Position numbers and translations under genes: made by a program. Shown piece after piece: positions 1 through 1,996 of a stretch of DNA of 1,996 nucleotides (within the stretch, counting starts at the first letter, position 1; each line of letters starts with the position of its first letter). This stretch comes from Escherichia coli (GTDB lineage Bacteria > Pseudomonadota > Gammaproteobacteria > Enterobacterales > Enterobacteriaceae). The stretch is taken from the NCBI RefSeq assembly GCF_003334405.1, contig NZ_QOWM01000041.1. One strand, 5' to 3'. A model generated the notes under the pieces. The model was not told where the DNA came from, did no database searches, and saw nothing but the letters and a program-made list of their open reading frames with translations.

Positions 1-810
1 AACCAGATGGACCCGGTGTACACGCCGGCGCGAAAAATCCACCTGTACCACTGCGACCATCGCGGCCTGCCGCTGGCGCTTGTCAGCACGGAAGGGGCAA
101 CAGAATGGTGCGCAGAATACGATGAATGGGGCAACCTGCTGAATGAAGAGAACCCGCATCAGCTGCAGCAGCTTATCCGCCTGCCGGGGCAGCAGTATGA
201 TGAGGAGTCCGGCCTGTATTACAACCGCCACCGCTATTATGACCCGCTGCAGGGGAGGTATATCACTCAGGATCCGATTGGGCTGAAGGGGGGATGGAAT
301 TTTTATCAGTATCCGCTGAATCCGGTTCAGTATATAGATTCAATGGGACTGGCATCAAAATATGGACACTTAAATAATGGCGGATATGGAGCGAGACCCA
401 ACAAACCGCCTACGCCCGATCCAAGTAAATTGCCGGACATAGCGAAACAATTAAGACTGCCATATCCTATTGACCAGGCCAGTAGTGCGCCTAATGTTTT
501 CAAAACATTCTTCAGAGCATTAAGCCCTTACGACTACACACTGTATTGCAGGAAGTGGGTAAAACCAAATCTGACTTGTACGCCACAGGATGATTCCCAG
601 TATCCAGGGATGGATACAAAGACAGCAAGTGATTACCTGCCACAGACAAATTGGCCAACAACTCAATTACCACCAGGATATACTTGTGCAGAACCCTATT
701 TATTCCCAGACATTAATAAACCCGATGGGCCAGCAACAGCAGGGATAGATGATTTGGGTGAAATTTTAGCTAAGATGAAACAGAGAACATCGAGAGGAAT
801 AAGAAAATGA
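1..810 (+). CDS. ybfO: Rhs-family protein, 3' portion only (5'-partial; reading frame is open from base 1, so the ATG at 7 is an internal Met). Contains the end of the RHS repeat-associated core and a 152-aa variable C-terminal (CT) toxin domain of unknown activity; possibly an orphan Rhs core-CT fragment
   Basis: Translation carries the hallmark end-of-core motifs of Rhs proteins: [76 protein letters not shown] is at nt 226-246, DPIGL at 271-285 and the terminal DSMGL at 337-351. Composition switches from GC-rich to AT-rich at about nt 290-350, as expected at an Rhs core/CT junction. Stop TGA at 808-810. The symbol is from memory of the K-12 RhsC-region gene order and was not verified by search. 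Confidence 0.9.
223..351 (+). other. Rhs core/CT boundary: putative aspartyl-protease autoprocessing region ([21 protein letters not shown] ... [10 protein letters not shown]), with predicted release of the CT domain after Leu115 (nt 349-351)
   Basis: Seen in sequence: two D-x-x-G-L motifs 22 residues apart, DPIGL (aa 89-93 of the ORF-track numbering) and DSMGL (aa 111-115). Established knowledge: in Rhs and Tc-toxin RHS cages a PxxxxDPxGL motif marks the C-terminal autoproteolysis site, and the variable toxin domain starts immediately after it. The conserved Pro is replaced by Ser here. Confidence 0.7.
352..810 (+). other. Variable C-terminal (CT) toxin domain of the Rhs protein, 152 aa, Pro-rich, 3 Cys, no motif I can assign to a known toxin family
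   Basis: Sequence downstream of the DSMGL motif is AT-rich and shows none of the core consensus, as expected for a polymorphic-toxin tip. I could not find HNH-type, PD-(D/E)xK-type or deaminase-type motifs by eye. Confidence 0.6.
792..798 (+). promoter_or_regulatory. Shine-Dalgarno (GAGAGGA) for the immunity gene, lying inside the 3' end of the Rhs CT coding sequence; indicates translational coupling
   Basis: Purine-rich GAGG/AGGA core with an 8-nt spacer to ATG 807; start and stop codons overlap. Confidence 0.55.
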
Positions 811-863
811 AAAGAGTTTTGTTCTTTTTGCTGATGATATTTGTTAGTTTTGGTGTTATAGCT
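807..863 (+). other. Signal peptide of the putative immunity protein (aa 1-19, predicted SPase I cleavage after VIA)
   Basis: KR at positions 2-3, then a 13-residue hydrophobic stretch [13 protein letters not shown], then small residues at -3 and -1 (V-I-A). Not a canonical lipobox because Asp sits at -1 relative to Cys21. Confidence 0.6.
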
Positions 864-1376
864 GATTGCGAAATACAAGCTAAAGATCATGATTGTTTTA
901 CTATTTTCGCTAAGGGTACTATTTTTTCCGCGTTTCCTGTCTTAAATAATAAAGCCATGTGGAGATGGTATCAGAATGAGGACATCGGTGAGTATTATTG
1001 GCAAACAGAACTGGGTACATGTAAAAATAATAAATTCACACCAAGCGGGGCGAGACTCTTAATTCGCGTCGGGTCACTACGCCTTAATGAAAATCATGCC
1101 ATCAAAGGAACGTTGCAGGAGTTGATAAATACAGCAGAAAAAACGGCGTTTCTCGGCGATCGGTTTAGAAGTTATATAAGAGCGGGTATCTATCAAAAAA
1201 AGAGCAGTGATCCAGTTCAGTTGTTGGCAGTCCTTGATAATTCAATCATGGTAAAATATTTTAAAGATGAGAAACCAACTTATGCTCGAATGACAGCACA
1301 TCTCCCGAACAAAAATGAGTCTTACGAATGTTTAATAAAGATACAGCATGAACTAATTCGTAGTGAAGAGAAATAA
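807..1376 (+). CDS. ybfC: Putative Rhs immunity protein, 189 aa, with a predicted Sec signal peptide (exported, probably periplasmic)
   Basis: ORF starts at ATG 807 and overlaps the upstream stop by 4 bp (ATGA at 807-810), with a GAGAGGA Shine-Dalgarno 8 nt upstream. This is the classic position of an immunity gene directly 3' of an Rhs CT. N-terminus [19 protein letters not shown]|DC has a basic n-region, hydrophobic core and V-I-A cleavage site; the mature part has 4 Cys. AT-rich like the CT it follows. Stop TAA at 1374-1376. The symbol is from memory of an E. coli K-12 189-aa secreted protein and was not verified. Confidence 0.8.
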
Positions 1377-1458: not shown

Positions 1459-1616
1459 CAGGGAAAGATCACGTAACGCTACTTTTTTGTACTAAATAAT
1501 TCGAATTTTAAGTTCAACAATTGAGATACTACTTATTGTCTAAAGCTGTTTTTCATAGCTTATACATGATCAAATACTCCTTACATAAATAAGGTGAACA
1601 AATGGAACTTAAAAAA
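1459..1616 (+). repeat. Direct repeat copy 1 (pairs with 1839-1996; period 380 bp)
   Basis: Hand alignment at offset 380: 150 of 158 identical. All 8 mismatches fall at 1504, 1511, 1515, 1518, 1529, 1531, 1538 and 1539. Confidence 0.9.
1591..1596 (+). promoter_or_regulatory. Shine-Dalgarno (AAGGTG) for the H-rpt transposase ORF; an identical site recurs at 1971-1976
   Basis: AAGGTG with a 5-nt spacer before ATG 1602. Confidence 0.5.
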
Positions 1617-1856
1617 TTGATGGAACATATTTCTATTACACCCGATTACAGACAAGCCTGGAAAGTGGTGCATAAATTGTCAGATATTCTACTGTTGACT
1701 ATTTGTGCCGTTATTTCTGGTGCAGAAGGTTGGGAAGATATAGAGGATTTCGGGGAAACACATCTCGATTTTTTGAAGCAATATGGTGATTTTGAAAATG
1801 GTATTCCTGTTCACGATACCATTGCCAGAGTTGTATCCCAGGGAAAGATCACGTAA
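1602..1856 (+). pseudogene. ybfQ: Truncated H-repeat-associated (ISAs1-family) transposase, N-terminal fragment (84 aa); the last 5 codons (QGKIT) and the stop come from the repeat junction
   Basis: AAGGTG Shine-Dalgarno at 1591-1596 and ATG at 1602. Homologous sequence ends at codon 79 (nt 1838), exactly where the second copy of the upstream leader begins; the frame then reads into that leader and stops at TAA 1854-1856. Full-length proteins of this family are several-fold longer. The symbol is from memory and was not verified. Confidence 0.75.
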
Positions 1857-1996
1857 CGCTACTTTTTTGTACTAAATAATTCGCATTTTATGTTTAAAAA
1901 TTGAGATATTCCTTATTACCTAAAGCTGTTTTTCATAGCTTATACATGATCAAATACTCCTTACATAAATAAGGTGAACAAATGGAACTTAAAAAA
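1839..1996 (+). mobile_element. Second H-rpt copy, 5' end (leader plus start of transposase ORF), continuing beyond the window
   Basis: 150 of 158 positions identical to 1459-1616, including the SD and ATG, with the last 76 bp identical. Confidence 0.75.
1839..1996 (+). repeat. Direct repeat copy 2 (pairs with 1459-1616); truncated by the window end
   Basis: Same alignment as copy 1. The repeat is still perfectly matching at the last base of the window, so it almost certainly extends further. Confidence 0.9.
1982..1996 (+). CDS. ybfL: Start of the next H-repeat-associated transposase ORF (MELKK...), 3'-partial, runs off the window
   Basis: ATGGAACTTAAAAAA at 1982-1996 is identical to the start of the 1602 ORF and is preceded by the same SD (AAGGTG at 1971-1976). 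Only 5 codons are visible, so whether it is intact cannot be judged. The symbol is from memory only. Confidence 0.5.

Follow-up and report, generated by a model that had tools for sequence, protein, structure and literature searches.

We find that positions 1459–1996 of the DNA analysed here (a stretch of 1,996 nucleotides from Escherichia coli, hereafter the window) very probably represent the beginning of the H-rptC1-C2-C3 array that follows the RhsC element, in the K-12-type arrangement, and that a truncated first copy, C1, is fused there to the exact left end of a second copy, C2. In all likelihood, this joint was made by transposase acting on a C2-type left end. We infer a transposase-type end joint, the other half of which disappeared through homologous recombination between copies or, alternatively, in a one-step adjacent deletion. 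The object is already known and ordinary; it is a scar passed on by inheritance and no novel type of element.

A sequence search matched all 1996 of the 1996 bases of the window to K-12-type E. coli chromosomes with 100% identity. The annotations of J53 and MG1655 place in it the end of an RHS core pseudogene (ybfO), ybfC, ybfQ and the start of ybfL. The downstream extension was carried out in strain J53 (locus L001), in which the window corresponds to L001 6001–7996. The window has the following features.

1–810, plus strand: 3′ end of an orphan Rhs core extension together with its C-terminal tip (ybfO/rhsC-linked pseudogene); the frame is already open where the window begins (ORF 7–810).
807–1376, plus strand: ybfC, a 189-aa ORF taken from the ORF list and annotated as protein YbfC.
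1377–1458, no strand: unique 82-bp spacer forming the left flank of the H-rpt array and ending in ...GTTCCATTTG; homology between copies begins only at 1459.
1459–1838, plus strand: H-rptC1, ISAs1-family element positions 1–380, from the alignment with intact H-rptB and C2.
1459–1476, plus strand: left terminal inverted repeat of C1, CAGGGAAAGATCACGTAA, which forms an inverted-repeat pair with the C2 right end (L001 9111–9129).
1602–1856, plus strand: ybfQ, an 84-aa ORF with 79 transposase codons followed by QGKIT and TAA from the C2 inverted repeat.
1838/1839, no strand: joint of C1 element position 380 with C2 position 1, from the alignment and from the exact 40-mer (1819–1858) in genomes.
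1839–1996, plus strand: first 158 bases of H-rptC2 (ybfL), with the left inverted repeat at 1839–1856, the leader and the start codon at 1982.

The left part of the window has the features of an Rhs accessory region, in which a variable tip and then a small downstream ORF (ybfC) follow the Rhs core end domain; the window as a whole corresponds to the distal portion of RhsC. Residues 1–115 of the ORF at 7–810 match the NCBIfam profiles RHS_core NF041261 (2.2e-69) and Rhs_assc_core TIGR03696; the J53 annotation calls positions 1–810 an RHS repeat-associated core domain pseudogene, and MG1655 has them as ybfO. ybfC and the Rhs tip ORF share 4 bases (ATGA), which include the stop codon of the latter, and judging from this position ybfC is presumably the cognate immunity gene of the tip. 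In the profile search it matched no NCBIfam family; its N-terminus is hydrophobic and signal-like. Strain 204 has the same 100 bases directly left of the element, which comprise the spacer and 18 bases of ybfC. The left flank of C1 and the ybfQ start-codon region form a 16-nt inverted repeat (1443–1458/1599–1614, 88% complementary), which involves the non-IS flank and is probably due to chance. A promoter and terminator scan of 1300–1996 returned one promoter-like site, as compared with 3.1 expected from shuffles, and a terminator-like hairpin at 1750–1768 within the ybfQ coding sequence, as compared with 0.2 expected.

The preliminary description of this DNA, made from the letters alone, had noticed tandem partial H-rpt copies with a 380-bp unit and a precise junction at codons 79/80 of the transposase gene, and this was borne out. 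The repeat finder detected a single direct-repeat family, 1459–1616 and 1839–1996 (158 nt, 95% identity, spacing 380). In the pairwise alignment the homology between C1 and C2 begins exactly at CAGGG, and the sequences preceding the two copies are unrelated; both copies open with the 21-mer CAGGGAAAGATCACGTAACGC (at 1459 and at 1839), for which 200 shuffles gave a chance expectation of 0 matches. C1 consists of the left inverted repeat within a 143-nt leader (1459–1601) and 79 codons, and ends exactly behind codon 79 (143 + 79 × 3 = 380). It has 8 private substitutions, at element positions 46–81. The 84-aa ORF, with its last five codons read from the next leader, was likewise found as described (ORF 1602–1856, codons 80–84 being the start of C2): these codons and the stop (CAG GGA AAG ATC ACG TAA) correspond to bases 1–18 of C2. 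This structure accounts for the annotation of ybfQ as an 84-aa 'inactive transposase YbfQ' in MG1655; elsewhere the gene is annotated as an ISAs1 family transposase missing the C-terminus. The assignment of these copies to ISAs1-family H-rpt elements in an Rhs accessory region, which the preliminary description had stated, is supported by the NF033564 and RHS_core matches and by the locus annotation. Residues 1–79 of YbfQ are 96% identical to those of YhhI, the transposase of intact H-rptB, and residues 29–79 align with positions 1–51 of NF033564 (ISAs1 family transposase; E 5.7e-18, 65.1 bits). Only the truncation of the protein keeps this score under the profile cutoff of 70; intact YhhI reaches 412 bits.

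Base 1839, and likewise 1459, is the exact left terminus of the insertion sequence at single-base resolution, as had been proposed for 1839 under a model of nested insertion. C2 is a full-length but inactivated ISAs1-family insertion sequence: it is 1290 bp long in its complete form (L001 7839–9128), ends 1132 bases past the window, and has one 378-codon frame with a single in-frame TAA at codon 18. Its left repeat CAGGGAAAGATCACGTAA (1839–1856) pairs with TTTCGTAATCTTTCCCTG, the right terminal repeat at L001 9111–9128, at 16/18 positions, about 1.27 kb downstream; the preliminary description had proposed to look downstream for such a reverse complement of 1839–1860. Intact copies of 1291 bp, including H-rptB of K-12 (yhhI), begin at the same CAGGG, and H-rptB has the ends CAGGG...CCCTG like C2. 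An inverted-repeat start of CAGGG, here present in C2 and in H-rptB, is an ISAs1-family signature according to ISfinder. As to the size characteristic of the family (about 1.2–1.5 kb with a single ORF), C2 fits it and C1 is a 380-bp fragment only; the transposase is of the family type, as seen from the NF033564 profile and the YbfQ-YhhI identity.

Relatives in other strains fix the element ends to the base, because three copies carry flanking direct repeats: an intact H-rpt copy in KFu022 with a 9-bp target duplication, GCGGGATGC; the C2 counterpart of the same strain (C2′) with a 10-bp duplication, CTTTTTGTAC; and a copy in IMT5155 with a 10-bp duplication, CCTTATATAG. H-rptB and the copies of MSHS 133 and AH50 have no target duplication around them. 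The single-base ends of E. coli H-rpt/ISEc1 are confirmed by these comparisons. Polymorphic copies with such flanking duplications constitute indirect evidence that H-rpt would have transposed in the past, with target duplications of 9–10 bp. A passage in a paper citing Zhao et al. 1993 states that H-rpt transposition had not been observed experimentally.

The C1|C2 joint is widespread in the species. The 40-mer spanning it (1819–1858) was found in 2363/5426 complete E. coli genomes, as a rule in one place each, and is at least 99% identical in 2344 of the 2363; it is therefore no assembly artefact. Among the 30 matches listed, 28 lie under ybfQ and the other two under 'transposase family protein'. 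For such counts we used queries of 40–50 bp, which can seed or pass the E-value limit only across a joint; junction queries of 120 bp are unfit for counts, as the search joins non-colinear pieces within about 560 bases and single elements then look fully covered. A scan outside E. coli, with one genome per species, gave a single match to the exact joint, on a 2399-bp contig (JARKOR010000224.1) binned in a 'Candidatus Nanosynbacter' MAG. This contig carries E. coli RhsC ybfC-ybfQ and the joint, and is almost certainly mis-binned E. coli DNA. Since the exact joint is present in so many genomes, in one place each and mostly under ybfQ, the distribution points to a single old event that was inherited vertically.

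The sequence beyond C2 proved to belong to a third copy. Directly after the C2 right end comes CTTTTTGTACTAAATAATTCG, which is position 25 onward of C3 (ybfD; L001 9129–10082), where the preliminary description had proposed to look for the remaining 3′ portion of the C1 transposase gene (after ...TIARVVS). C3 lacks positions 1–24 and has a 313-bp internal deletion. C3 is not the missing 3′ part of C1, because C1 (1–380) and C3 (25 to the end) have 356 element positions in common, about 24 of which differ between them. In KFu022 the order is Z(1–34), C2′(1–1290), Z(25–end), and the right joint of C2 is thus that of a separate, classical nested insertion, in which C2 entered C3 at 34/35 and duplicated 10 bp. 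The joint with the 34-bp C3 stub is kept in 71/5426 complete genomes and the C2|C3 joint is found in 1430/5426. KFu022 (NZ_CP091677.1; L007 1318–2608 and 3237–4560) also has extra RhsC accessory modules between ybfC and C2, namely an NTF2-fold immunity gene, an intact H-rpt, a DUF6258 gene and an RHS core fragment. In K-12, C3 positions 388–512 (L001 about 9492–9616) have 13 substitutions in 125 bp that are private with respect to the KFu022 C3, and the patch shares positions 462, 480, 489 and 512 with the copies of IMT5155 and NCTC86. Judged by these sites, the patch looks like a gene conversion from another H-rpt lineage.

How did C1 come to end at the terminus of C2? The model of nested insertion, by which C2 moved once into the C1 gene, draws on the joint at an exact IS terminus, on the matching right inverted repeat downstream and on the nested H-rpt insertions known in KFu022 and NCTC86, but places the 3′ part of C1 and a target duplication directly beyond C2. 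The C2 right end meets C3 position 25 instead of position 371/381 onward, C1 and C3 overlap over positions 25–380 with the differences described above, and the C2 right joint stems from another insertion, which left a 10-bp duplication and a 34-bp stub of its own. No target duplication exists at the C1|C2 joint or around the whole array; the 10-bp duplication of C2, as seen in KFu022, is that of the C3 insertion. The right joint that an insertion at 380/381 would have produced (right end plus positions 371–395) was not detected in the 5426 complete genomes when searched with a 50-bp probe, the only matches of which were to a different nested structure in NCTC86. In its strict form the model is thus already refuted by the downstream sequence, and we consider its chance close to nil. 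What stands of it is the IS terminus at 1839; what fell are the C1 remainder, the target duplication and the predicted right joint (0/5426). A simple arrangement of one IS nested in another is not seen at C1|C2; it is confined to C2′ in C3 of KFu022-type strains.

The second model of the preliminary description, recombination or deletion between tandem elements, also fails when taken alone. Homologous exchanges are indeed frequent among the copies, with in-register deletions of the 380-bp and 1267-bp types, and a local tandem duplication of positions 1–380 would yield the order [1–380][1–1290]. However, homologous exchange keeps the register and cannot join 380 to 1, and a duplication must by chance have one of its boundaries at the exact IS terminus. 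Furthermore, C1 and C2 differ at 21/380 bases, while C1 is identical between K-12 and O104:H4 at all variable alignment columns. Strain 204, the only single-copy form with the C1 5′ part, is a derivative and not an ancestor, because it is identical to C2 from 363 to 1290. An unequal exchange or a local 380-bp duplication that proceeded without transposase is accordingly improbable. Still less probable is a random illegitimate deletion whose right endpoint happened to coincide with the C2 left end. There is no target duplication to prove a role of transposase, and H-rpt copies have suffered other losses (313 bp within C3 and 157 bp in NCTC86), but a base-exact coincidence with the terminus would occur about 1 in 1000 times per endpoint by our estimate, the joint has no microhomology (C1 would go on with T, whereas C2 begins with C), and other H-rpt copies, in KFu022 and NCTC86, have the same type of terminus-to-internal joint.

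Action of transposase on the C2-type left end remains the preferred explanation, because the joint has a base-exact IS terminus on one side and lacks microhomology, and because homologous exchange keeps the register and is unable to join 380 to 1. Neither of the two earlier models is sufficient by itself; a mixture, an end joint made by transposase plus a loss by recombination or deletion, fits the data. The loss could have occurred by either of two routes. By the first, an element Y would have inserted into C1 at 380/381 and then recombined in register with a downstream C2′ by homologous exchange; the right part of Y, the C1 3′ remnant, any intervening orphan modules and the Z stub would have been deleted, and a chimeric C2 would have been left behind. 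To this insertion with subsequent homologous deletion we assign close to an even chance. By the second route, the C2 left end would have attacked an upstream copy intramolecularly, in a one-step, IS-mediated adjacent deletion, and later gene conversion would be needed for the C2 chimerism; its chance is substantial, though short of even. The two routes give the same product and are not separable here, and the remainder of the probability falls to chance deletion or local duplication.

K-12 C2 does look chimeric from the comparison with KFu022 C2′, to which its identity is 99.3% over 601–1291, 95.0% over 181–600 and 91.6% over 1–180; its left end is of the subtype common to C1 and to copies in IMT5155, NCTC86, MSHS 133 and AH50. 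A chimeric C2 is what the route of insertion and homologous deletion predicts, and the pattern observed fits it. Alternatively, conversion events on the KFu022 side could have produced the chimerism; patches of conversion are evident among the copies, for instance at C3 positions 388–512. A surviving C1 3′ remnant and a target duplication are both absent, so that an insertion at 380/381 is not directly demonstrable. We propose that the present structure has no transposition function and consists of direct repeats that RecA-type recombination goes on reshuffling.

The other architectures derive, as their SNP patterns show, from the three-copy form by in-register homologous recombination. O104:H4 C227-11 has C1 and a C2 × C3 hybrid, with the crossover near 652–656 and a 1267-bp deletion; 2013C-3252 has a single C1 × C2 × C3 hybrid, with a C1/C2 switch between 138 and 180 and a further 380-bp deletion; and strain 204 has a C1 × C2 hybrid and C3, with the crossover at 316–362 and a 380-bp deletion. 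In strain 204 (NZ_CM134209.1; L014 3826–5115) a full-length 1290-bp element adjoins ybfC. It is K-12 C1 over 1–315 and K-12 C2 over 363–1290, lacks the C2 TAA at codon 18, and has an intact 378-aa ORF for an ISEc1-type transposase (WP_124047000.1). We considered the single-element strains as the ancestral state and rejected this, their SNP patterns being C1/C2/C3 mosaics. A 40-mer for C1 internal variants also matched other copies, and its counts were unusable. IS1 lies within C1 of the array in strain 23CRST038 and within C2 in strain Ec-2977 (L006 4641–5338, L008 4936–5633).

Joints between a terminus and another copy also occur outside this array. In NCTC86, between galF and wzx in the O15 O-antigen cluster (L009 2530–4953), the order is X(1–204), Y(1–1291, with an intact ORF), X(362–1291), a nested H-rpt with a 157-bp target loss in place of a duplication. 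In APEC IMT5155, in the O-antigen region near gnd (L011 1770–3060), an H-rpt lies directly upstream of a strongly diverged, AT-rich ISAs1-like copy, and this arrangement may be a further insertion bordering on a related element. Among the few loci examined, we count four terminus-to-internal or terminus-to-end joints (34/35, 380, 204/362 and the edge of the diverged copy). Around positions 369–381 the element reads ..AGTTGTATCC TGTATC.., and the H-rpt right end reads TCTTKCCCTG. A speculative reading of these joints, which we regard as rather unlikely, is that H-rpt/ISEc1 preferentially inserts into its own copies and that C1 serves as a repair template re-creating an active element. If true, a 'dead' array could re-create an active element, as the C1-C2 recombination in strain 204 restores an intact transposase ORF.

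The RhsC H-rpt array is thus a fossil of at least two transposase-made joints, in which recombination collapses the array to three, two or one copies. What our analysis adds is minor: the nesting of C2 in C3 as shown by stub and duplication, the chimeric make-up of C2, the series of recombinants and the regenerated ORF. It is of use for the annotation of the pseudogenes in the array and as indirect evidence of past H-rpt transposition, and opens no new question.

The array itself is on record. Zhao and colleagues (Zhao et al. 1993, J Bacteriol 175:2799) reportedly found RhsC to contain three defective H-rpt copies in tandem, and described the 1291-bp H-rptB; we take the array of the window to be their H-rptC1/C2/C3 (ybfQ, ybfL, ybfD). 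The window and the K-12 RhsC H-rptC1-C3 are the same locus, with 100% identity and no sequence difference, and K-12-type records annotate ybfC, ybfQ, a ybfL pseudogene and ybfD. A full-text literature search on H-rpt, H-repeat and ISAs1 returned passing mentions only. With ISEc1/H-rptB (yhhI) the C copies have in common the ends CAGGG...CCCTG, the leader, the transposase and the length of 1290–1291 bp. Unlike the intact ISEc1/H-rptB, C1 comprises the first 380 bp only and C2 has the TAA at codon 18; at left-end positions 14–25, C1 and C2 have the subtype CACGTAACGCTAC, in contrast to CATCAAAAGTTCAC of H-rptB, and CACGTAACGCTAC is also the left-end subtype of the copies of IMT5155, NCTC86, MSHS 133 and AH50. 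IS-mediated adjacent deletion by intramolecular transposition is known for IS1, IS10 and IS903; one IS end remains intact and is fused to a nearby target, the intervening DNA is lost and there is no target duplication. To our knowledge, no such deletion has been demonstrated for an ISAs1-family element. In contrast to the adjacent deletions of IS1, IS10 and IS903, the target here is another copy of the same element, and an insertion combined with a homologous deletion would give the same product.
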